Positions 9,588 to 48,141 of a DNA stretch of 64,000 nt are shown here, in pieces. Under the pieces are notes generated by a model. It was given only the letters and a program-made list of their open reading frames with translations. It did not search any database and was not told where the DNA came from. The position numbers were made by a program, and so were the translations under genes. Origin of the DNA: Cenarchaeum sp. (lineage in GTDB: Archaea; Thermoproteota; Nitrososphaeria; Nitrososphaerales; Nitrosopumilaceae); assembly GCA_963693095.2 (NCBI GenBank), contig OY843768.1, positions 768,001 through 832,000 of the forward strand, given 5' to 3'. Each line of letters begins with the position of its first letter. The stretch's first letter is position 1.

Positions 9588-9745
9588 GCGTTTTGGCAAA
9601 AAAAAAATCACACACTAGGGGGCACTGCTCTTTTGCCATACTGCCTGCCCTGCGTTTTGAAAAAAAAATCACACTAGGTGGTACTCTGCTCGTTCGCCAG
9701 GCTGCCGGCCAGGCGTTTTGAAAAAAAGCGCGCACTGGCCGACTA
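9588..9745. repeat. Imperfect ~62-bp tandem repeat (2.5 copies) with A-tracts between convergent genes
   Basis: gcgttttg(gc)-A-tract-tcacact/gcgcgcact recurs at ~9588, ~9652, ~9713. Confidence 0.65.
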
Positions 9746-10920: not shown

Positions 10921-11123
10921 AAGGGTGCGCACCACACGGGCAAATATAACGCTTGAGCGCACAGCCGTCGTGCGCCACCTGCGCGCAAATGCTGGGAAAT
11001 CACGGCACCATGTGCGCCATGGCGCCGCCAGAGAGCTTAATCGCGCAGGGCCCGCATCAGGCCCACAGTCCGCTGCCCTGGGCAGGCTATATCATATATA
11101 GCAGGGCAGCGTGGAATTCGTGC

Positions 11124-11732
11124 ATGACGTCGCCCTATTGGAGAGCGCACGGGGACCCGCCAATAGTAGTGGGGACTGCGGCGACCACGATATATATGCT
11201 AGGCATCATACTGGCCATAGCAAGGGTCACCGGAATCGTGCACGATGTCGGATCGTTTGGCGCCGTCATTGGGACCATGGCGTTGGGGTTTATGGTCTAC
11301 ATATTTGTGAATAGCACAACGCGCGACAACAAGGCCGAGCGGGGCAGAGAGTATGAATTGAGGGAGGCTGACAGTGAAAACATCAGTCGATTAACACACA
11401 TAATCAACCAGTGTGAGATATCGCTGCTAAAATTAGAGCAGCATAAAGAAACACCCAGGGAGAGATCAGTCATGGAGTTACAATATGTGCGAGGCCAGAC
11501 AGATGATATTGTAAAAAATTATGAAAAGTATTTGAGTCCAGAAGGTCGAAAACTAGTCGGAATCATTAAGGACATAATCGACGAGATGAGGTTTAACGGC
11601 CATGCAGGAAATACACGAATGGATGACGCGATTAAAAATATAGTACAATTAAAACAACACGTAATAGATGTGGATGATCATGTGCTCAAAAGCATCAGAG
11701 AGTCAACCATGCACGGAACGCCAAATCAGTAG
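11124..11732 (+). CDS. 2-TM membrane protein with helical C-terminal domain (copy 1, 202 aa)
   Basis: MTSPYW start after TATA-like ctatatcatatatag; two hydrophobic segments then a charged helical region; intact paralog at 16173. Confidence 0.75.
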   Translation: MTSPYWRAHGDPPIVVGTAATTIYMLGIILAIARVTGIVHDVGSFGAVIGTMALGFMVYIFVNSTTRDNKAERGREYELREADSENISRLTHIINQCEISLLKLEQHKETPRERSVMELQYVRGQTDDIVKNYEKYLSPEGRKLVGIIKDIIDEMRFNGHAGNTRMDDAIKNIVQLKQHVIDVDDHVLKSIRESTMHGTPNQ

Positions 11733-11759
11733 AGAGGCAGATTCGCGCCCAACTGCGCA

Positions 11760-12320
11760 TTAGCGCATATAGCCCAACCGGAGCAGCTCGTCATAAATTT
11801 GCTCTACCTGTTTTTTTGTGTAGGTTGGTTTTGTGGACGCAACGTATTTGGGCAATTCTGCTCCAACAATCCTATACTTAAGTTCGACAAGAATTAGCCT
11901 ACTTGCAATTTCAAGCCAAGTGAGATCATGCGTATGCATAAACTGTAAAAATTCGTCCATGCGAGGCCAATAGGCAATATCCCTGGAATCCGCCTCAGAT
12001 ATGTCAGGCAAGACATAATAGTCGCTGGCAAGTTCCGGGGAATATGGCCCATAATCAAAAAGGCCATGGCCATAGGTAAATGCCAGACCAAACACATTTT
12101 GGGCAAAATAGACATACAGTTGGATTTTGATGCGTTCGCTTTCTGACGCATCTCTGGGGTTTTTGTCGCAGTCGATCAATTTGTGCTCAAGAAGGAGCTT
12201 GAGGAGCGGAGCCGTGTTGGGATCGGCAACTAGCGGGTCGTTCAAAAAATCCGGTATCTCCAACGGGGCACGCTCAACTGCTGTTCCATATGCCGCAGGA
12301 ATCATGCTATGGCACCCCAC
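11760..12320 (-). CDS. Panacea/SocA (DUF4065)/YwgA-like helical protein, paralog 1
   Basis: RIKIQLYVYFAQ...YGPYSPELASDYY resembles the KLQKLxY...GPYS signature; six intact paralogs. Confidence 0.7.
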   Translation of the reverse strand: MGCHSMIPAAYGTAVERAPLEIPDFLNDPLVADPNTAPLLKLLLEHKLIDCDKNPRDASESERIKIQLYVYFAQNVFGLAFTYGHGLFDYGPYSPELASDYYVLPDISEADSRDIAYWPRMDEFLQFMHTHDLTWLEIASRLILVELKYRIVGAELPKYVASTKPTYTKKQVEQIYDELLRLGYMR

Positions 12321-12469
12321 TGACCCAGGCTGCTCTCCTCGCCGTCATGACTTGGCAGAGTGGCTTAAATGATTTAACTGTTTTTGGAATTCCACGCGCG
12401 AGAATCTAGCATTCCTGCCCATTTTGGTCAAATGGGCGCGATCCTGCCGATCCGTTTACCGCGGCTACG

Positions 12470-12770
12470 CCCGCCGTGGGGGGGGGGGGGTGCCGTGGCC
12501 AGGCTCCGCCGTGCCCTGCCGCGAATGTTCGCGTTCTGCACGTCGGCGCCGAGCCCACGAACGGCGCCTCTGAGAGGGCGCTGCTGCACGGGGCCGTGCG
12601 CCGCAAGACAGGCGGCCAGCTCAAGTGGGGCGCCGCCCCGGCCGAGCGTATGTCGACCACCCCGGCATGCCTCTTCACGTGGAAGGCCACGGGGAAGAGC
12701 GTGGCCGGGGAGGTCATGCTAGCGATCCGGGTGCTGACCCCATGCCCAGTATTAGCCACAAAGGAGACAA
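12470..12770 (+). mobile_element. IS66-family transposase C-terminal remnant
   Basis: GAEPTNGASERALLHGAVRRK resembles IS66 TnpC V(E/P)PTNNxAERALRxxVxxRK; no intact transposase. Confidence 0.65.
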
Positions 12771-12925
12771 CTGGCGAGATTATGTTTAACGGCCATGCGG
12801 GAAATACACTCATGGATGACGCGATTAAAAAGATCGGCCAGCTAAATCAACACGTGAGGGATGTGGATGATCAAAAGCTCAAAAGAACCAGAGAGACGAC
12901 CATGCACGGGACGCCAGATCAGTAG
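12771..12925 (+). pseudogene. 3' fragment of the 2-TM gene
   Basis: EIMFNGHAGNTLMDDAIKKIGQLNQHVRDVDDQ... matches the C-terminus of 11124-11732. Confidence 0.75.
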
Positions 12926-12950
12926 AGGCAGATTCGCGCCCAACTGCGCA

Positions 12951-13511
12951 TTAGCGCATATAGCCCGACTGGAGCAGCTCGTCATAAACTTGCTCCACCT
13001 GTTTTTTTGTGTAGGTTGGTTTTGTGGACGCAACGTATTTGGGCAATTCTGCTCCAACAATCCTATCGCGGAATTCAACATGAATTAGCGTACTTGCAAT
13101 TTCAAGCCAAGTGAGATCATGCGAATGCGCAAACTGTAAAAATTCGTCCTTGCGAGACCAATAGGCAATATACTGGGAATCCGCCTCAGATATGTCAGGC
13201 AAAAGACGATAGTCACTGGCAAGTCCCGGAGAATGTGCCCCATGTCTAAAAAGCACATGATAATAGCTGAATGCCAGATCAAACACATTTTGGGCAAAAT
13301 AGACATACAGTTGGATTTTGATGCGGTCGTTTTCTGAGGCATCTCTGGGGTTTTTGCCACAGTCGATCAATTTGTGCTCAAAGAGGAGCTTGAGGAACGA
13401 GGCCGTGTTGGGATCGGGAATTTGCGGATCACTCAAAATACCCGGCATGTCTGCCATGGCACGCTCGGATACTGCACCATATGCCGTGGAAGCCATGCTA
13501 TAGCACCCCAC
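12951..13511 (-). CDS. Panacea/YwgA-like protein, paralog 2
   Basis: Colinear 186-codon paralog; motif variant RHGAHSPGLASDY. Confidence 0.7.
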   Translation of the reverse strand: MGCYSMASTAYGAVSERAMADMPGILSDPQIPDPNTASFLKLLFEHKLIDCGKNPRDASENDRIKIQLYVYFAQNVFDLAFSYYHVLFRHGAHSPGLASDYRLLPDISEADSQYIAYWSRKDEFLQFAHSHDLTWLEIASTLIHVEFRDRIVGAELPKYVASTKPTYTKKQVEQVYDELLQSGYMR

Positions 13512-13649
13512 AGACACAGTCTGCTCGCCGCGTCACCATGACTCGGCAGAATGGCCCAAATGATTTAACTGTTATTGGAATTCCACGCGCGGGAATCGGG
13601 CATTCCTGCCCATTTTGGCCAAATGGGCGCGATCCTGCCGATCCATCTG

Positions 13650-13963
13650 CCGCGGTGGCGCCCGCCGGGGCGCGCCGTGCCCGGGCTCCGCTGCGCCCTG
13701 CCGCGAATGTTCGCGTTCTGCACGTCGGCGTCGAGCCCACGAACGGCGCCTCCGAGAGGGCGCTGCGGCACGGGGCCGTGCGCCGCAAGACAGGCGGCCA
13801 GCGCAAGTGGGGCGCCGCCTCGGCCGAGCGCATGTCGACTACCCCAGCATGTCTCTTCACGTGGAAGGCCACGTGAAAGGCCACGGGGAAGGGCGGGCCG
13901 TAGAGGCCATGCGCGCGATCCGGGTGCTGACCCCATGCCCAGTATTAGCCACAAAGGAGACAA
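13650..13963 (+). mobile_element. IS66-family transposase remnant
   Basis: GVEPTNGASERALRHGAVRRKTGG. Confidence 0.65.
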
Positions 13964-14118
13964 CTGGCGAGATTATGTTTAAAGGCCATGCGGGAAATAC
14001 ACTCATGGATGACGCGATTAAAAAGATCGGCCAGCTAAATCAACACGTGAGGGATGTGGATGATCAAGAGCTCAAAAGAACCAGAGAGACGACCATGCAC
14101 GGGACGCCAGATCAGTAG
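13964..14118 (+). pseudogene. 3' fragment of the 2-TM gene
   Basis: EIMFKGHAGNTLMDDAIKK...MHGTPDQ. Confidence 0.75.
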
Positions 14119-14143
14119 AGGCAGATTCGCGCCCAACTGCGCA

Positions 14144-14704
14144 TTAGCGCATATAGCCCAACCGGAGCAGCTCGTCATAAACTTGCTCTACCTGTTTTTT
14201 CGTGTAGGTTGGTTTTGTGGACGCAACGTATTTGGGCAATTCTGCTCCAACAATCCCATACTTGAGTTCAACAAGAATTAGCCTACTTGCAATTTCAAGC
14301 CAAGTGAGATCATGCGAATGCGCAAACTGTAAAAATTCGTCCATGCGAGGCCAATAGGCAATATCCAGGGAATCCGCCTCAGATATGTCAGGCAAAACAT
14401 AATAGTCGCTGGCAAGTTCAGGGGAATACGGCCCATAATCAAAAAGGCCATGGCCGTAGGTAAATTCCAGACCAAACACATTTTGGGCAAAAAAGACATA
14501 CAGTTGGATTTTGACGCGTTCGTTTTCTGACGCATCTCTGGGGTTTTTGTCACAGTCGATCAATTTGTGCTCAAAAAGGAGCTTGAGGAGTGGAGCAGTG
14601 TTGGGATCGGCAAGTAGCGGATCTTTCAAAAAATCTGGTATCTCCAACGGGGCACGTTCATGTATTACCCCATATGACGCAGGAATCATGCTATGGCACC
14701 CCAC
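14144..14704 (-). CDS. Panacea/YwgA-like protein, paralog 3
   Basis: Colinear paralog, GTG at 14704; YGPYSPELASDYY. Confidence 0.7.
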   Translation of the reverse strand: MGCHSMIPASYGVIHERAPLEIPDFLKDPLLADPNTAPLLKLLFEHKLIDCDKNPRDASENERVKIQLYVFFAQNVFGLEFTYGHGLFDYGPYSPELASDYYVLPDISEADSLDIAYWPRMDEFLQFAHSHDLTWLEIASRLILVELKYGIVGAELPKYVASTKPTYTKKQVEQVYDELLRLGYMR

Positions 14705-14844
14705 TGACCCAGTATGCTCGCCGCGTCGCCATGCTCCAGCAGAATTACCCAAATGATTTAACCGTTTTTGGAATTCCACGCGCGGGAATCGGGCATTCCT
14801 GCCCATTTTGGCCAAATAGACGCGATCCTGTCGATCCATTTACC

Positions 14845-15155
14845 GCGGTGGCGCCCGCCGGGGCGCGCCGTGGCCAGGCTCCACTGCGCCCTGCCGCGAA
14901 TGTTCGCGTTCTGCACGTCGGCGTCGAGCCCACGAACGGCGCCGCCGAGAGGGCGCTGCGGCACGGGGCCGTGCGCCGCAAGGCAGGCGGCCAGCGCAAG
15001 TGGAGCGACGTCTCGGCCGAGTGCATGTCGACCACCCCAGCATGTCTCTTCACGTGGAAGGCCACGTGAAAGGCCACGGGGAAGGGCGGGCCGTAGAGGC
15101 CATGCGCGCGATCCGGGTGCTGCCCCCATACCCAGTATTAGCCATAAGGAGACAA
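14845..15155 (+). mobile_element. IS66-family transposase remnant
   Basis: GVEPTNGAAERALRHGAVRRKAGG. Confidence 0.65.
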
Positions 15156-15308
15156 CCGATGAGATGATGTTTAACGGCCATGCGGGAAACACACTCATGG
15201 ATGACGCGATTAAAAAGATCGGCCAGCTAAATCAACACGTAAGGAATGTGGATGATCAAGAGCTCAAAGGGATCAAAGTCGACCATGCATGGAACGCCAA
15301 ATCAGTAA
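15156..15308 (+). pseudogene. Frameshifted 3' fragment of the 2-TM gene
   Basis: DEMMFNGHAGNTLMDDAIKK...ELK, then shifts frame relative to intact copies. Confidence 0.7.
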
Positions 15309-15335
15309 AGAGGCAGATTCGTGCCCAACTGCGCA

Positions 15336-15896
15336 CTAGCGCATATAGCCCAACCGGAGAAGCTCGTCATAAACTTGTTCTACCTGTTTTTTTGTGTAGG
15401 TTGGTTTTAGGAACGTAACGTGTTTGGGCAAGGCTGTTCCAACAATCCCATCGCGAAATTCAACATGAATTAGCGTACTTGCAATTTCAATCCAAGTGAG
15501 ATCATGCGTATGCGCAAACTGTAAAAATTCGTCCATGCGAGTCCAATAGGCAATATCCCTGGAATCCGCCTCAGATATGTCAGGCAAGAGATAGTAATCG
15601 CTGGCAAGTTGCGGGGAATATGGGCCATGTTCAAAAAGCCCATGGGAGTAGGTAAATGCCAGACCAAACACATTTTTGGCAAAATAGACATACAGTTGGA
15701 TTTTGACGCGTTCGCTTTCTGACGCATCTCTGGGGTTATTGCCACAGTCGATCAATTTGTGCTCAAAAAGGAGCTTGAGGAGTGGAGCCGTGTTGGGATC
15801 GGCAACGCGCGGATCGTTCAAAAAAGAGTCCAAGTCCGTCGTGGCACGCTCGGATACTGTGCCATATGCCGCGGAAACCATGCTATGGCACCCCAC
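15336..15896 (-). CDS. Panacea/YwgA-like protein, paralog 4
   Basis: Colinear paralog; EHGPYSPQLASDYY. Confidence 0.7.
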   Translation of the reverse strand: MGCHSMVSAAYGTVSERATTDLDSFLNDPRVADPNTAPLLKLLFEHKLIDCGNNPRDASESERVKIQLYVYFAKNVFGLAFTYSHGLFEHGPYSPQLASDYYLLPDISEADSRDIAYWTRMDEFLQFAHTHDLTWIEIASTLIHVEFRDGIVGTALPKHVTFLKPTYTKKQVEQVYDELLRLGYMR

Positions 15897-16172
15897 AGAC
15901 CCAGTATGCTCCCCGCGTCACCATGACTCAGCAGAGTGGCCTAAATAATTTAACCGTTTTTGGAATTCCACGCGCGGGAATCGGGCATTCCTGCCTGTTT
16001 TGGCCAAATGGACGCGATCCCGCCGATCCGTTTACCGCAATGGGGTGGAATTCCAGCCCATGTGCGCCATAGCGCCACCGGAGAGCTTAATCGTGCAAGG
16101 ACCGCATCAGGCCAAAGTCCACGGCTCAGGGCAGGCTATATCATATATAGCCGGGCAGCGTGGAATTCGTGC

Positions 16173-16781
16173 ATGACGTCGCCCTATTGGAGAACGCACG
16201 GCGACCCGCCAATAGTCGTGGGGACTGCGGCGACGACGATATACATACTAGGCATCATACTGGCCATAGCAAGGGTCACCGGAATCGTGCACGACGTTGG
16301 ATCGTTTGGCGCCGTCATTGGGACCATGGCGCTGGGGTTTATGCTCTACATATTTGTGAATAGCACAACGCGCGACAACAAGGCCGAGCGGGGCAAAGAG
16401 TATGAATTGAGGGAGGCTGACAGTGAAAACATCAGTAGATTAACACGCATGATCAAGCAGTGTGCGATAACGCTGCAAAAATTAGATCAACATAAAGAAA
16501 TATTCAAAAAAAGACCGGACATGGCAATACAACACCTGTTAGGACTGATAGACGATATTTCAACAAATTATGAAAAGTATTTGAGTCTAGAAGGCCGGAA
16601 ACTATTCGAAATTATTAGGGACACAATTGACGAGATGATGTTTAACGGCCATGCAGGAAATACACGTACGGACGATATGATTAAAAAGATCGATCAGCTG
16701 AATCAACATATAAGGGATGTGGATGATCAAGAGCTCAAAAGAAACAGAGAGTCGATCATGCACGGAACGGAAAATCAGTAG
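16173..16781 (+). CDS. 2-TM membrane protein (copy 2, 202 aa)
   Basis: N-terminal half near-identical to copy 1, divergent central/C-terminal helices, same upstream element. Confidence 0.75.
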   Translation: MTSPYWRTHGDPPIVVGTAATTIYILGIILAIARVTGIVHDVGSFGAVIGTMALGFMLYIFVNSTTRDNKAERGKEYELREADSENISRLTRMIKQCAITLQKLDQHKEIFKKRPDMAIQHLLGLIDDISTNYEKYLSLEGRKLFEIIRDTIDEMMFNGHAGNTRTDDMIKKIDQLNQHIRDVDDQELKRNRESIMHGTENQ

Positions 16782-16804
16782 AGGCAGATTCGTGCAACTG
16801 CGCA

Positions 16805-17365
16805 TTAGCGCATATAGCCCAACTGGAGCAGCTCGTCATAAATTTGCTCTACCTGTTTTTTTGTGTAGGTTGGTTTTAAGGTAGCAACGTATTTGGGCAA
16901 TTCTGGTCCAACAATCCTATCGCGAAATTCAATATGAATTAGCCTACTTGCAATTTCAAGCCAAGTGAGATCATGCGTATGCGCAAACTGTAAAAATTCG
17001 TCCATGCGAGACCAATAGGCAATATCCTGGGAATCCGCCTCAGATATGTCAGGCAAGAGATAGTAATCACGTGCAAGTTGCGGGGAATGTGGCCCATGTT
17101 CAAAAAGCCCATAGCGATAGGTAAATGCCAGATTAAACACATTTTGGGCAAAAAAGAAATACAGTTGGATTTTGATGCGTTCGCTTTCTGACGCATCTCT
17201 GGGGTTTTTGTCACAGTTGATCAATTTGTGCTCAAAAAGGAGCTTGAGGAGCGGAGCCGTGTTGGGATCGGCAACGAACGGATCGTTCAAAAAAGAGTCC
17301 AAGTCCGCCATGGCACGCTCGGATACTGTACCATATGCAGTGGAAGCCATGCTATGGCACCCCAC
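16805..17365 (-). CDS. Panacea/YwgA-like protein, paralog 5
   Basis: Colinear paralog; EHGPHSPQLARDYY. Confidence 0.7.
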   Translation of the reverse strand: MGCHSMASTAYGTVSERAMADLDSFLNDPFVADPNTAPLLKLLFEHKLINCDKNPRDASESERIKIQLYFFFAQNVFNLAFTYRYGLFEHGPHSPQLARDYYLLPDISEADSQDIAYWSRMDEFLQFAHTHDLTWLEIASRLIHIEFRDRIVGPELPKYVATLKPTYTKKQVEQIYDELLQLGYMR

Positions 17366-17509
17366 AGACCCAGTCTGCTCGCCGCGTCACCATGACTCAG
17401 CAGAGTGGCCCAAATGATTTAACTGTTTTTGGAAATCCACGCGCTGGAATCGGGCATACCTGCCCATTTTGGCCAAACGGGCGCGATTCTGCCGATCCGT
17501 TTACTGCAA

Positions 17510-17810
17510 CGGCGCCCGCCGGGGCGTGCCGTGGCCAGGCTCCGCCGCGCCCTGCCGCGAATGTTCGCGTTCTGCGAGCACGTCGGCGTCAAGCCCACGA
17601 ACGGCGTCGCCGAGAGGGCACTGCGGCACGGGGTCGTGCGCCGCAAGACAGGCGGCCAGCTCAAGTGGGGCGCCGTCTCGGCCGAGCGCATGTCAACCAC
17701 CCCGGCATGCCTCTTCACGTGGAGGGCCACGGGGAAGAGGGGGCCGTAGAGGCCATGCGCGCGTCCCAAGTGCTGACCACATGCCCAGTATTAGCCATAA
17801 GGAAGACAAC
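17510..17810 (+). mobile_element. IS66-family transposase remnant
   Basis: MFAFCEHVGVKPTNGVAERALRHGVVRRKTGG, the least eroded copy. Confidence 0.7.
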
Positions 17811-17963
17811 CGGCGAGATGATGTTTGATGACCATGTAGGAAATACATGAATGTGTGTGGCGATTAAAAATATAGAGCGATGAAATCAACATGTAGCGGA
17901 TGGGGTGATCAAGAGCTCAGGGGGATCAGAGAGTCGATCACGCACGGAACGCCAAAACAGTAG
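17811..17963 (+). pseudogene. Degraded 3' fragment of the 2-TM gene
   Basis: Homologous DNA with premature stops. Confidence 0.65.
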
Positions 17964-17988
17964 AGGCATATTCGCGCCCAACTGCGCA

Positions 17989-18549
17989 TTAGCGCATATA
18001 GCCCAACAGGAGTAGCTCTTCATAAATTTGCGCTACCTGTTCTTTTGTGTAGGTTGGTTTTAAGGTCGCAACGTATTTGGGCAATTCTGGTCCAACAATC
18101 CTATCGCGAAATTCAACATGAATTAGCGTGCTTGCAATTTCAAGCCAAGTGAGATCATGCGCATGCACAAACTGTAAAAATTCGTCCTTACGAAGCCAAT
18201 AGTCAATCTTCTGGGAATCCGCCTCAGATATGTCAGGCATGACATAATAGTCGCTGTTAAGTCCCATGGAGTATGGCCCATGTTCAAAAAGCCCATGGCG
18301 ATAGGTAAATGCCAGACCAAACACATTTTGGGCAAAATAGACATACAGTTGGATTTTGATGCGTTCGTGTTCTGACGCATCCCTGGGGTTTTTGTCACAG
18401 TCGATCAATTTGTGCTCAAAAAGGAGCTTGAGAAGCGGAGCCGTGTCGGGATCGGCAACGTGCGGATCTTTCAAAAAATCTGGTATCTCCAACGGGGCAC
18501 GCTCATGTATTACCCCATATGACGCAGGAATCATGCTATTGCACCCCAC
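17989..18549 (-). CDS. Panacea/YwgA-like protein, paralog 6
   Basis: Colinear paralog, GTG at 18549; EHGPYSMGLNSDYY. Confidence 0.7.
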   Translation of the reverse strand: MGCNSMIPASYGVIHERAPLEIPDFLKDPHVADPDTAPLLKLLFEHKLIDCDKNPRDASEHERIKIQLYVYFAQNVFGLAFTYRHGLFEHGPYSMGLNSDYYVMPDISEADSQKIDYWLRKDEFLQFVHAHDLTWLEIASTLIHVEFRDRIVGPELPKYVATLKPTYTKEQVAQIYEELLLLGYMR

Positions 18550-18857
18550 TGACCCAGTATGCTCGCCGCGTCGCCATGCTCCAGCAGAATTACCCAAATG
18601 ATTTAACTGTTTTTGGAATTCCACGCGCGGGAATAGGGCATTTCTGCCCATTAGGGCAAGGCAGCAGATCCTCGTGCGCCTGCCCCACGGCCCGTAGACA
18701 CGCCCGCCACGCCCCGGCCAATGCGCGACGTGGCCGCAGGCAGGATCACGGGAGGCCCGAGGCGGCCGCACGGATCACCCTGGCGGCCCCACGCCATGCC
18801 AAGATCACGCGAGTCGCGCCGCAAGCAAGATATGTGCCTGTGCGGCGCAGTCATGCG

Positions 18858-19103
18858 ATGAGCGCAAACACGATCAAAAAGGCCAAGAGGCTCGTAGAGT
18901 CTGGCAGCGTGGCCAAGATCGAGGACGACATCTACCAGGTCAGGTCATCGAGTGACGCATCAAAGTCGTACATTGTTGACGGCGAGTCGTGTGACTGTCC
19001 CGGATACGCCAACTTTTACAAGTTTCACGGCGGCAAGGGGATAAAGGCAAACTGTTCGCACCTAGAGGCAGTCAGGCTGTTCCGAGGCGACGAGAAAGCC
19101 TAG
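18858..19103 (+). CDS. SWIM zinc-finger protein
   Basis: MSANTIKKAKRL...YIVDGESCDCPG...NCSHLEAV (CxC...CxH). Confidence 0.8.
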   Translation: MSANTIKKAKRLVESGSVAKIEDDIYQVRSSSDASKSYIVDGESCDCPGYANFYKFHGGKGIKANCSHLEAVRLFRGDEKA

Positions 19104-45629: not shown

Positions 45630-46697
45630 ATGAACAAAAAATCACCTGCAAATAAAAATTTGAATGTGTTAGATCTGTTTGCTGGAGCAGGGGGATTAAG
45701 CTATGGATTGCAATTAGCTGGATGTAATGTAATTGCCGGAATTGATAAAGATGCTGATTGTAAAGAAACGTTTTTGAAAAATCATCCCAATTCAAAATAT
45801 CTTACCAAAGACATAAAAACAATATGTAGGAAAGACATATACGATATCATTGGAAAAAATAACATAGACATAATTGTTGGGGGGCCGCCATGCCAAGGAT
45901 TTAGCATATCAGGCAAACGTATAGAACACGATCCTCGAAATCAGCTATACAATCATTTTTTAAAAATAATAGATGTGATCAAACCACAGGCAGTTTTAGT
46001 AGAAAATGTTCCAGGATTACGCACGTTATTTAATGGTACAATATTAGATGATTTGTTGACAAAACTACAAACACGGAGATATAATGTTAATGTGAGTATA
46101 TTGTCATCAGAAAGATACGGTGTGCCACAAGCACGTAAACGGATATTCATAGTGGGGATAAAAGGAGAACACTACAGATTTCCCAAACCAAGCAATAAAC
46201 AAATTACATTGTGGGATGCCATAAGTGATCTTCCACTATTGAATAAAAATATCACATCAACAGAATATCGTTCGAAACCAAAAAACAAATATCAAGAATT
46301 TATGCGAAAAGAGTCCAATCATATATCAAACCACACTGCAACAAAACATACCAAACAAACAAAAAGGATAATATCTATGGTCCCGGAAGGTAAAAATTAT
46401 AAAGCACTTCCAAAACACTTACAAAAAATTCGTAATGTTCACATTGCATGGACTAGACTGGATAGTTCAAAACCTTCGTTGACCATCGATACTGGTCATC
46501 GTCACCACTTTCATCCCAAAGCAAATAGAGTGCCAACAGTGAGGGAATCAGCCAGAATACAGTCTTTCCCAGATAACTTTAGATTTTTTGGGAATAAGAC
46601 CTCACAATATCGTCAGGTCGGAAATGCAGTACCACCGTTGTTAGCATTGAAGCTTGGGGAGAGACTATTAGAAACATTGGGTGGCAATCATGTATAA
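45630..46697 (+). CDS. DNA (cytosine-5) methyltransferase M1
   Basis: DLFAGAGG, GGPPCQGFS, ENV, QARKR, RESARIQSFP, YRQVGNAV. Confidence 0.96.
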   Translation: MNKKSPANKNLNVLDLFAGAGGLSYGLQLAGCNVIAGIDKDADCKETFLKNHPNSKYLTKDIKTICRKDIYDIIGKNNIDIIVGGPPCQGFSISGKRIEHDPRNQLYNHFLKIIDVIKPQAVLVENVPGLRTLFNGTILDDLLTKLQTRRYNVNVSILSSERYGVPQARKRIFIVGIKGEHYRFPKPSNKQITLWDAISDLPLLNKNITSTEYRSKPKNKYQEFMRKESNHISNHTATKHTKQTKRIISMVPEGKNYKALPKHLQKIRNVHIAWTRLDSSKPSLTIDTGHRHHFHPKANRVPTVRESARIQSFPDNFRFFGNKTSQYRQVGNAVPPLLALKLGERLLETLGGNHV

Positions 46698-48141
46698 TGT
46701 TCCGTCCAAATATCAATTTAGAATACACCACATACGACCAAGGTTTAAGAACAGCATAGAAGATGTAATTATATTTATGGGAACGAACATAGCTTATATG
46801 AAACCAAATAAAAAAATAGAATTCGACAAGGAATTAGATAAAAAAATTAGGATGTATCCAGGCAATACAAGACGAACGGAAAAAACTATTTGCAATTGGA
46901 GAACCGAGATATCATCAATATTTGGATTTGTGATGGAAAATAAAAATGGCGAAATGTGCGCAGGAGACAATGCAGTAATGCTTGCCGAGCATCAAGATTT
47001 AGTAGAATTTTTCAAATATTTCACATATTTGTTTCAGTATCCCGGCGGACATATGAAGCCTGAAAAAACTCACGAGGTGATCAAAAAAAGGATAAAGTTT
47101 AAACCTGCACAATACATCATAAACGTTTTGTGGTCGGCAAATAATCGGTTTGGAAAATCATGGGGCATAACACGGGCAGAAACAACTCATTGTATTTTTA
47201 ATGATTTGAGAGTAACGAGAGATCATCGAAATGTTGATGAAATTATAGATTTGATTACACAAAACCGTGAAAATAAACAGCAGTACGATTGTAAAGGAGA
47301 TGTGATTAGATATGCCGGGGATATTCTCGACTATATGGTTCATGCAAACATATTATATTTGAAACCATCAGGTAAATATCATTTAAATGTAAACGAATCA
47401 GACACAATAAATCTTTTTAAAGATAACAACATATGGTTTAAGGGATTTGATAAATTATACGGTGTGGATAATTCTATAAATGATATTCGTAAAATATATA
47501 AAAAATGGTTTTTGTATGTAAATAGCCATGCAGGTAAAATAGAATTTGGAGAAAATAAAATAAAGACAGAAATACGACAAACAGCTAAACGCCAGACAGA
47601 TGACATAATTAAAGAATGTGCAGCGATAGGAAAAAGTGAGCACATAGCTGTAGAAATTGACTCAATTTTGAATAATCCAAATAAATCACCAAAAATCACT
47701 GGCGACACCGGAGAGGCGTTAGCACATAATCATGAATGTGAAGTACTTCGACTCAATAACAATAAACAGCTAATACACAAAATCATCAAACTTCCCAATA
47801 GCTTTGCTATGGGCTATGACATAAAATCATTTAATTCAAAACAAGTATTCAAACATATTGAAGTAAAGACCACGTCAAGCAAACACGCATTACGAATAAA
47901 GACTGTTCATTTAACAGATAATGAATGGGACGCTGCACATCATTATGGGTCAAGCTATTACATATACAGAATCACAATATTTGAACGTGATGAAAAAGCA
48001 TCTGCCGAGCTATACATTGTAAAAGACCCAGTACAACAAGCAAAAAATGGAAAATTATCAGTGAACGTAAATAATGGTGTGAATATTCTGTTTAAAGACG
48101 GGGCTGGGGAAAAAGTAGAGTTGTTACAATGGAAAAAATAA
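46690..48141 (+). CDS. Putative type II restriction endonuclease with C-terminal DUF3883-like PD-(D/E)XK domain
   Basis: GDTGE...GYDIKSF...IEVKTT...LTDNEW...YYIYR; overlaps both flanking MTase genes. Confidence 0.8.
   Translation: MYNVPSKYQFRIHHIRPRFKNSIEDVIIFMGTNIAYMKPNKKIEFDKELDKKIRMYPGNTRRTEKTICNWRTEISSIFGFVMENKNGEMCAGDNAVMLAEHQDLVEFFKYFTYLFQYPGGHMKPEKTHEVIKKRIKFKPAQYIINVLWSANNRFGKSWGITRAETTHCIFNDLRVTRDHRNVDEIIDLITQNRENKQQYDCKGDVIRYAGDILDYMVHANILYLKPSGKYHLNVNESDTINLFKDNNIWFKGFDKLYGVDNSINDIRKIYKKWFLYVNSHAGKIEFGENKIKTEIRQTAKRQTDDIIKECAAIGKSEHIAVEIDSILNNPNKSPKITGDTGEALAHNHECEVLRLNNNKQLIHKIIKLPNSFAMGYDIKSFNSKQVFKHIEVKTTSSKHALRIKTVHLTDNEWDAAHHYGSSYYIYRITIFERDEKASAELYIVKDPVQQAKNGKLSVNVNNGVNILFKDGAGEKVELLQWKK

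Follow-up and report, generated by a model that had tools for sequence, protein, structure and literature searches.

The 64,000-nucleotide (nt) stretch of the Cenarchaeum sp. genome analysed here (assembly GCA_963693095.2, contig OY843768.1, positions 768,001 to 832,000; the window, in whose numbering positions are given) carries at 11.0-18.6 kb, flanked by housekeeping genes, an array of six intact genes of one family on the minus strand (P1 to P6), two intact genes for a membrane protein on the plus strand (M1 and M2), four 3' remnants of M (m') and four internally deleted copies of the insertion sequence IS66. On balance, we favour the idea that this locus is a tandemly amplified toxin-antitoxin (TA)-like module, composed of a neutraliser of the type of Panacea or DarG's C-terminal domain (DarG-C) and a membrane effector, and that it has left behind orphan, diversifying P genes. 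The anatomy of the locus, the homology and fold of P, its genomic linkage to M and the evolutionary pattern carry this reading. An amplified module of effector and antitoxin had already been proposed in a first-pass annotation made from the sequence alone; homology, linkage and the loss of M copies support that proposal, but P lies outside the Pfam Panacea family and the IS66 pieces have a different history.

In searches with P1 to P6, nothing significant was found in Pfam or NCBIfam, and a word-based search with P returned relatives from within the lineage plus three weakly similar proteins of 146-148 amino acids (aa). The genome itself encodes 19 paralogues according to tblastn, and 51 P-family open reading frames (ORFs) at E<1e-3 were detected with a profile hidden Markov model (HMM). 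With a profile built from 25 members, 2686 representative proteins were matched at a threshold of E<=1e-3; at E<=1e-10 there were 591. Most of them measure 145-200 aa, and each stands for a cluster at 50% identity. Among the best 150 representatives, 122 matched the PADLOC DarG model and 73 the NCBIfam model antitoxin_DarG, and a single one matched SocA_antitoxin (E=0.009). The matches to the DarG model are confined to its C-terminal half, i. e. to profile positions ~165-329 of 329. The predicted fold points in the same direction: when the AlphaFold2 model of P1 (pLDDT 87, with residues 1-21 disordered) was compared with 48,161 chains, the only strong match was 7yk3_D, DarG's C-terminal domain in the DarT-DarG complex of M. 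tuberculosis (Z 11.4, root mean square deviation 3.3, 142 residues), and the next match had a Z of 4.5. Foldseek aligned the P1 model to the same domain with a probability of 0.97 and a TM-score of 0.56. The sequence identity of P to 7yk3 is 12-15%, and sequence searches of the PDB with two P profiles gave nothing significant, with 7yk3_B at E=2.

The relation to Panacea is more distant. The Pfam model PF13274 (SocA_Panacea; gathering score 25.7 bits) matched none of the best 150 representatives at E<=0.01 and nothing in the whole genome at E<=1, and the control search was positive in 7 of 14 genomes. For a profile-profile comparison, a set of 13 PF13274-positive proteins was drawn from 201 Thermoproteota genomes; one of these also matched the P profile and was omitted, and the other 12 were aligned. 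In hhalign, the P-family representatives aligned to these Panacea proteins with a probability of 96.4% (E 1.3e-9, 101 columns), and the window's own P family with 94.3% (E 1e-7, 46 columns). Moreover, a bridging archaeal protein of 164 aa (G143:C192:10102-10491) is recognized both by the P profile (E 5e-10) and, above the cut-off, by SocA_Panacea (E 4e-8). Among the Atlas clusters, P led to unnamed ones only, plus a lead of 0.79 to a cluster in which 13% of the members bear PF13274. Judged by the fold match, the DarG-model matches of its relatives and the hhalign alignments to Panacea, P is remotely related to Panacea and more closely to DarG-C. The initial assignment of P to Panacea/SocA is thus upheld at the level of the superfamily but not by the Pfam DUF4065 model. 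As to the signature on which it was based, the P copies carry GPYS, GPHS or GAHS (the family consensus is GPYS) rather than GPV, the motif named as the Panacea signature (PMC8832971). Some Pfam-positive archaeal members of Panacea carry GPFS or GPYS.

M1 (11124..11732, plus strand; M-family HMM E=1e-67) and M2 (16173..16781, plus strand) are 78% identical to each other. Counted from their MTSPYW start, both comprise 202 aa and contain two hydrophobic helices. In M1, the transmembrane (TM) segments span residues 12-43 and 42-65, and the AlphaFold2 model (pLDDT 84) has helices at 14-36, 42-106 and 112-197, so that the second TM helix continues into a four-helix bundle. The topology of membrane proteins follows the positive-inside rule, and a Lys/Arg-rich stretch after the second TM helix suggests that the bundle is cytoplasmic. 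Relatives of M were found by word search within the genus only, and the corresponding Atlas clusters are unnamed.

The pairing of the two families, which had been put forward from the arrangement of the array alone, recurs elsewhere in the genome. An iterated HMM detected pieces of M-family ORFs at 18 genomic loci, five of them within the window. Of the 13 loci outside, 12 are located directly downstream of a P-family ORF and in the same direction; the sole exception is a broken M copy at contig C1:24.9-25.5 kb. The linkage of P and M is therefore more than a local coincidence. In addition, another ORF with TM segments comes after seven further P genes; the five of these ORFs that were inspected encode proteins of ~190 aa that share the architecture of M, two TM helices at the N-terminus followed by a helical tail. 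A complex prediction for P1 (residues 22-181) and M1 (residues 62-202), run without controls, gave a score of 0.00, a value that speaks neither for nor against the pairing.

P relatives in other genomes have other partners. In a sample of the phylum, 30 of 301 genomes contain a P-family gene at E<=1e-8, usually in 1-3 copies. The neighbourhoods of 24 of the 30 loci were used, the locus of the own genome and five partial matches being dropped; five of the 24 lack an adjacent ORF, three neighbours that looked spurious or unrelated (L030, L031 and L053) were left out, and the remaining 16 ORFs, all from other Thermoproteota, were scanned. Six encode PIN domain proteins (two above the cut-off), one a PemK/MazF protein and four proteins with HD and HD_assoc_2 domains, and five belong to no family. 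The PIN and MazF genes are situated directly downstream of the P relatives. P-family genes precede PIN, MazF, HD and 2-TM genes and swap their partners, which is the position and the behaviour of an antitoxin. The four HD neighbours (L048, L050, L052 and L054) are ~430 aa long, three of them downstream and one upstream of the P-family gene; this recurrent partner is not a classical toxin but a putative phosphohydrolase. At another locus of the genome (L003:9686-11075, contig C1 ~1745.7-1747.1 kb), two genes of very low GC content (35%) lie beside a P paralogue. One of them contains a motif that we take to be that of C5 cytosine DNA methyltransferases, and the two genes may form a restriction-modification pair.

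Within the array, the P genes have been kept and the M genes lost. The order of elements is M1, P1, IS, m', P2, IS, m', P3, IS, m', P4, M2, P5, IS, m' and P6, with M and m' reading rightwards and P leftwards, as revealed by the ORF list and a repeat finder; the order given in the first-pass annotation was correct. The repeat units measure 1191, 1193, 1192, 1469 and 1184 bp from start to start. Counted from the ATG that the public gene calls use, each P gene encodes 181 aa, and 186 codons from a GTG five codons further upstream. The genes, all on the minus strand, are P1 (11760..12305, with the alternative GTG start at 12320), P2 (12951..13496; the most divergent copy, with GAHS in place of GPYS), P3 (14144..14689; its protein is 91% identical to P1, yet its flanks resemble unit 2), P4 (15336..15881; divergent from M2 with ~290 nt in between), P5 (16805..17350; 95% identical in nucleotide sequence to copy Gc of a sister species) and P6 (17989..18534; a mosaic with a P3-like N-terminus and a P5-like C-terminal half). 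In the ORF list, the six frames extend over 11760-12320, 12951-13517, 14144-14704, 15336-15896, 16805-17365 and 17989-18549, and the third and the last of them are nested within longer ORFs.

No internal gaps are needed to align the six proteins, whose identity to P1 is 74-91%; of the 181 residues, 106 are invariant, among them the blocks PDISEADS, DEFLQF, HDLTW.EIAS and KPTYTK. None of the copies has a frameshift or a stop codon, as had been claimed for the 186-codon frame: the alignment of the 546-nt coding sequences (CDS) of the six copies contains no gap run, as compared to seven in the 165-nt m' segment, seven in the 165-nt block upstream and 21 across four units in the IS segment. When the differences by which each copy departs from the consensus of the six are distributed at random, a copy stays free of stops with a probability of 0.19-0.51, which gives ~5e-4 for all six if they are independent, an assumption that overstates their independence. 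An A-rich block with TTAAAT (12367..12385, minus strand, in the case of P1), TATA-like and 67-72 nt upstream of the ATG of P1, is nearly invariant in front of all six P genes, in agreement with the common upstream block noted before. It may provide each P gene with its own promoter-like element, a reading for which we presume the archaeal BRE/TATA consensus. A scan for sigma-70 promoters and intrinsic terminators found fewer sites than in shuffled sequences; these models are not applicable to archaea.

Of M, the four m' pieces (plus strand) retain just the last ~54 codons. Remnant 1 (12761..12925) is 67-70% identical in tblastn to residues 149-202 of M1 and M2, and remnant 2 (13954..14118) differs from it by 1.2%. 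The pieces before P4 and P6 are frameshifted: remnant 3 (15146..15305) gives two tblastn pieces in different frames and a 2-bp alignment gap, and the degraded remnant 4 (17797..17960) two short pieces of 51-67%. The decay of the m' fragments that had been noticed is thus real. M or m' and P converge, and their stop codons are separated by a 27-nt spacer (11733-11759 and its equivalents) that is ~97% identical across the units; it is better conserved than both coding regions and contains a short GCGC...GCGC palindrome. The GC-rich spacers are a single IS66 form with an internal deletion, present in four copies (minus strand; 12408..12749, 13605..13942, 14798..15135 and 17459..17788). What is left of the 1.5-kb element in each copy is ~70-80 nt from one end and ~260-285 nt from the other. 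These copies are 74-88% identical in nucleotide sequence to the two ends of a full-length IS66 elsewhere in the genome (contig C1 ~45803-47322; 18-bp terminal inverted repeats, a 472-aa transposase, PF03050 E=1e-38); in blastn against this element, copy 1, with both element ends kept, reaches 78-81%, and copies 2 to 4 are matched as well; a further comparison of the pieces with this element gave 74-80%. Of four fragment ORFs scanned, only that of copy 4 matched PF03050 directly, below the cut-off (E=3e-4, 20.7 bits; cut-off 23.1). The IS66 origin of these pieces had been recognized in the first-pass annotation, but they are copies of one miniature deletion derivative and not independent products of decay.

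The loss of effector copies with retention of P, which had also been suggested, is repeated in a second array on the plus strand of contig C1 (13855-33143): it contains 17 P-family ORFs and seven M loci, three intact and four broken or truncated. At C1:43776-45667, two additional P genes together with a fragment of M lie directly beside the full-length IS66. In a sister species of the genus (genome G004, a single contig), the locus is flanked by the same genes as here and contains three P and two M genes; its nucleotide identity to the locus in the window is 89-94%. All three of its P copies are open. The middle one (L017:9797-10390) lacks the usual ATG (VVPPAYR instead of M.S.AYG); it is open upstream and may use another start. 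In the genus, all four further genomes have 3-23 matches to P; in other genera of the family, 5 of 14 genomes have 1-5, and in other families of the order none of 12 has any. The family has been amplified only in this genus.

The units are mosaics: the divergence between units 2 and 3 is 1.2% for m' and 4.6% for the IS piece but 16% for P, P3 differs from P1 by 6.7%, and P6 is itself a mosaic. The cassettes are thus shuffled by recombination or gene conversion. The higher divergence of the P CDS as compared to the IS fragments had been considered as a sign of positive selection; this was rejected, because mosaic units confound such divergence figures. The mean omega among the six P paralogues is 0.76, with 1.11 for residues 1-30, 0.46 for residues 31-100 and 1.07 for residues 101-181. 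Between the host and the sister species, omega is 0.06-0.20 for the flanking genes, 0.26 for M1, 0.42 for M2 and 0.32-1.03 for pairs of P.

The characterized members of the Panacea/DarG-C superfamily neutralise their partner toxin by binding. By analogy, P would be a small cytosolic neutraliser and M its partner, most likely a membrane-perturbing effector that is held in check by P. We propose that a unit of P and M in opposite directions was first repeated, that a miniature IS66 then replaced the 5' two-thirds of one M gene, and that unequal crossing-over multiplied the resulting unit of IS, m' and P and gene conversion shuffled it. Selection would keep every P gene open and allow or even favour amino acid exchanges, whereas M copies would be lost. 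The outcome would be a bank of mostly orphan variant neutralisers with their own promoter-like blocks that covers the two remaining M proteins; the genome's dozen other M-type genes may be covered too, or M-type genes that arrive on mobile elements. What we infer is that M is toxic, that P binds and neutralises it and that such a bank is of use.

Several observations weigh against this proposal. P1 to P6 themselves match neither the DarG nor the Panacea models, even at E<=1, so that their link to both runs via the paralogues, the profiles and the predicted fold. M has no family match in Pfam or NCBIfam scans and its bundle is of a generic fold, with 160 chains matching at Z>=8; thus, nothing but the context marks M as a toxin. 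The intact M copies are somewhat constrained, as judged from omega values of 0.26-0.42, and a pure poison need not be. In the P proteins, omega around 1 in the N-terminal tail and in residues 101-181 would also fit early pseudogenisation. Finally, M and P in the window are either convergent, across the 27-nt spacer, or divergent (P4 and M2), and they do not form a bicistronic operon; therefore, co-expression and stoichiometric control are not implied. If type II TA modules are defined as two small, adjacent, co-directional genes, usually with the antitoxin first, such pairs are present at 12 of the 13 other M loci and with the PIN and MazF partners elsewhere, but not in the window.

The comparison with PanA-PanT shows how far the analogy carries. 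Like PanA, P has a small globular domain of the antitoxin type with a K.QK...Y...GP motif core, it is related to Panacea in the profile-profile alignments given above (96.4% for the family, 94.3% for the window's own members), and its family pairs promiscuously, here with PIN, MazF, HD and 2-TM genes. TM toxins that depolarise the membrane are validated PanT partners of Panacea antitoxins (PMC8832971). In contrast, P and its 150 relatives fail PF13274, GPYS (also GPHS or GAHS) replaces GPV, M combines two TM helices with a four-helix bundle in 202 aa where the PanT TM toxin is a short peptide, and P and M are not co-directional in the window. Moreover, P occurs in arrays of six and ~17 genes, and such arrays are not described in the accessible parts of the Panacea papers. 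DarG-C is the only strong structural match of the predicted P model, and both DarG models recognize P relatives through their C-terminal half. This domain alone binds and neutralises DarT, by sequestration without catalysis (PMC7003065). The differences lie in the low sequence identity to 7yk3, in the partner, which is a membrane protein for P and an ADP-ribosyltransferase for DarG, and in the macrodomain of DarG, which was not matched in P (181 aa) or any of the 150 relatives. A search for DarT (PF14487) found no match in the genome, and the control search likewise none in 14 genomes, so that this absence is uninformative. Among 8000 candidates, no longer or fused forms of the P family were detected at E<=1e-5, a negative that weighs little. 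In the available part of PMC8832971, DarG is cited merely as an analogy.

The array also resembles the orphan immunity arrays and chromosomal anti-addiction antitoxins of bacteria, in which many protective genes are maintained in tandem and diversify fast, and the cognate toxin genes are few, truncated or absent. The bacterial arrays serve contact-dependent or secreted toxins or plasmid addiction modules, whereas here an ammonia-oxidising archaeon is the host, another protein family is involved and no delivery system is evident. The genome encodes an archaeal AmoA (E=3e-117), in agreement with a thaumarchaeal, ammonia-oxidising host. The claim that the layout has not been described was confirmed insofar as the literature searched, to which subscription-only papers such as that on the 7yk3 structure do not belong, contains no account of the P family, of a link between DarG-C and Panacea or of such arrays.

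The same structural and linkage evidence would fit a repertoire for abortive infection, in which the P paralogues are sensors or decoys with different viral triggers that silence the membrane effector M, and in which the array widens detection. The PADLOC candidate-defence model PDC-M19A matches 60 of the best 150 P representatives, amino acid replacements are fast and unevenly placed with the frames preserved, the amplification is specific for the lineage (4/4 genomes of the genus, 5/14 of other genera, 0/12 of other families), and the authors of the Panacea study favour a sensor role for the domain (PMC10440598). Yet neither a viral trigger nor a viral homologue was found: no close relatives of P1 or M1 are present in IMG/VR viral contigs (pattern search and tblastn), the P-family representative P0020 has no match in GenBank phages, and the best hit of the fold search in BFVD has an E of 0.25. 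Moreover, the array lies among housekeeping genes and not in a defence island, and most P copies lack a local effector, since just two M genes are intact. We regard this reading as rather unlikely. In a search of plasmids, P0020 had a single weak match, in NC_012624.1 of Sulfolobus islandicus Y.N.15.51 (14648-14950, 30%, E 9e-4), which falls within a gene annotated as type I restriction S subunit; weak matches to the PADLOC model Specificity_I occur among P relatives as well.

It is improbable that P and M are a non-toxic signalling pair, in which M is a membrane sensor or scaffold, P a regulator or adaptor of the winged-helix type that docks on M, and the array an expansion of paralogues. The bundle of M does resemble HPt and sensor bundles (CheA P1, Z 12.2; the sensor domains of NarX or McpN, Z ~10), towards its C-terminus the P model has weak winged-helix matches (Z 3.4-4.2), P4 and M2 have their divergent intergenic region in common, and some purifying selection acts on the intact M genes. 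But the bundle matches are as generic as mentioned above, and those to winged helices are at the level of noise. In addition, P relatives directly upstream of PIN and MazF genes occupy the classic position of an antitoxin, the sole strong fold match of P is a toxin-sequestering domain, and the repeated breakage of M would be unusual for a sensor that is needed.

We give an equally small chance to the idea that the array is a functionless, decaying selfish repeat of a mobile TA-like cassette and a miniature IS66, in which the P genes are open only because the duplications are recent. This would agree with omega near 1 in half of P, with differences that are about evenly distributed over the three codon positions (102, 68 and 79), with the GC content of the cassette (0.39-0.50 for P and M as compared to 60% for the genome), with the association with IS66, with the mosaic units and with the copy number that varies between the sister species. 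It is at odds with the absence of indels in six times 546 nt next to 165-nt segments that have seven gap runs each, with the absence of stops although at least one would be expected per copy, with the 106 invariant residues arranged in blocks, with the promoter-like block conserved before each copy and with the three open P copies of the sister species. Mis-assembly, in which fewer real copies were collapsed or expanded to give the six units, is very improbable: no contig from four public runs of one study, possibly made from the source sample, spans the array, and in run X3 a contig leads from 17524 back to 14865, but the units can be told apart (their P CDS differ by 6-17%), unit-specific stretches (17646-17999, 15211-15408 and 13353-13594 among them) recur with 0 differences in short contigs of these runs, and the single-contig G004 genome, an independent assembly, has the same architecture at the same place with three copies. 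These last two points also answer the first-pass annotation, which had allowed for an assembly artefact, and the copy number is not essential to the amplified TA-like module that we favour.

Two features close to the array deserve mention. At 9599-9720, two tandem direct repeats of 61 nt, 75% identical and each beginning with A9TCACAC, separate a pgk-like gene from a radical-SAM gene of the CofH/MqnC type. Just beyond the array, at 18837-19103, there is a small conserved ORF with a C.C...C.H pattern, which to us is reminiscent of a SWIM-type zinc finger; its protein is 98% identical between the two species (omega 0.11) and has no Pfam match at E<=1.

The P family is large, with its 2686 clusters at 50% identity, and no Pfam or NCBIfam model gives it a name. 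It would unite DarG's C-terminal domain and Panacea in one antitoxin-type superfamily, and in archaea P-family genes precede PIN, MazF, HD and 2-TM genes. Because surveys that are based on COG and Pfam miss the ~51 P-family genes of this genome, the TA and defence content of the lineage would be undercounted; according to the part of the paper available to us, a survey of sponge Thaumarchaeota relied on annotation of this type (PMC7848895). It is tempting to speculate, though this is a tentative idea to which we assign a low probability, that the arrays are an archaeal recognition repertoire: the ~51 fast-diversifying P paralogues of the 2.0-Mb genome would each be tuned to a viral trigger or an incoming M-type toxin and gate a few shared membrane effectors, and unequal crossing-over and gene conversion would make new specificities. 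If this is true, the ammonia-oxidising archaeon would possess a germline-encoded, cassette-shuffled bank of innate immunity. With intact, diversifying putative neutralisers beside decaying putative effectors, the locus would provide a clean natural system to test the anti-addiction and sensor-bank ideas on orphan antitoxins.

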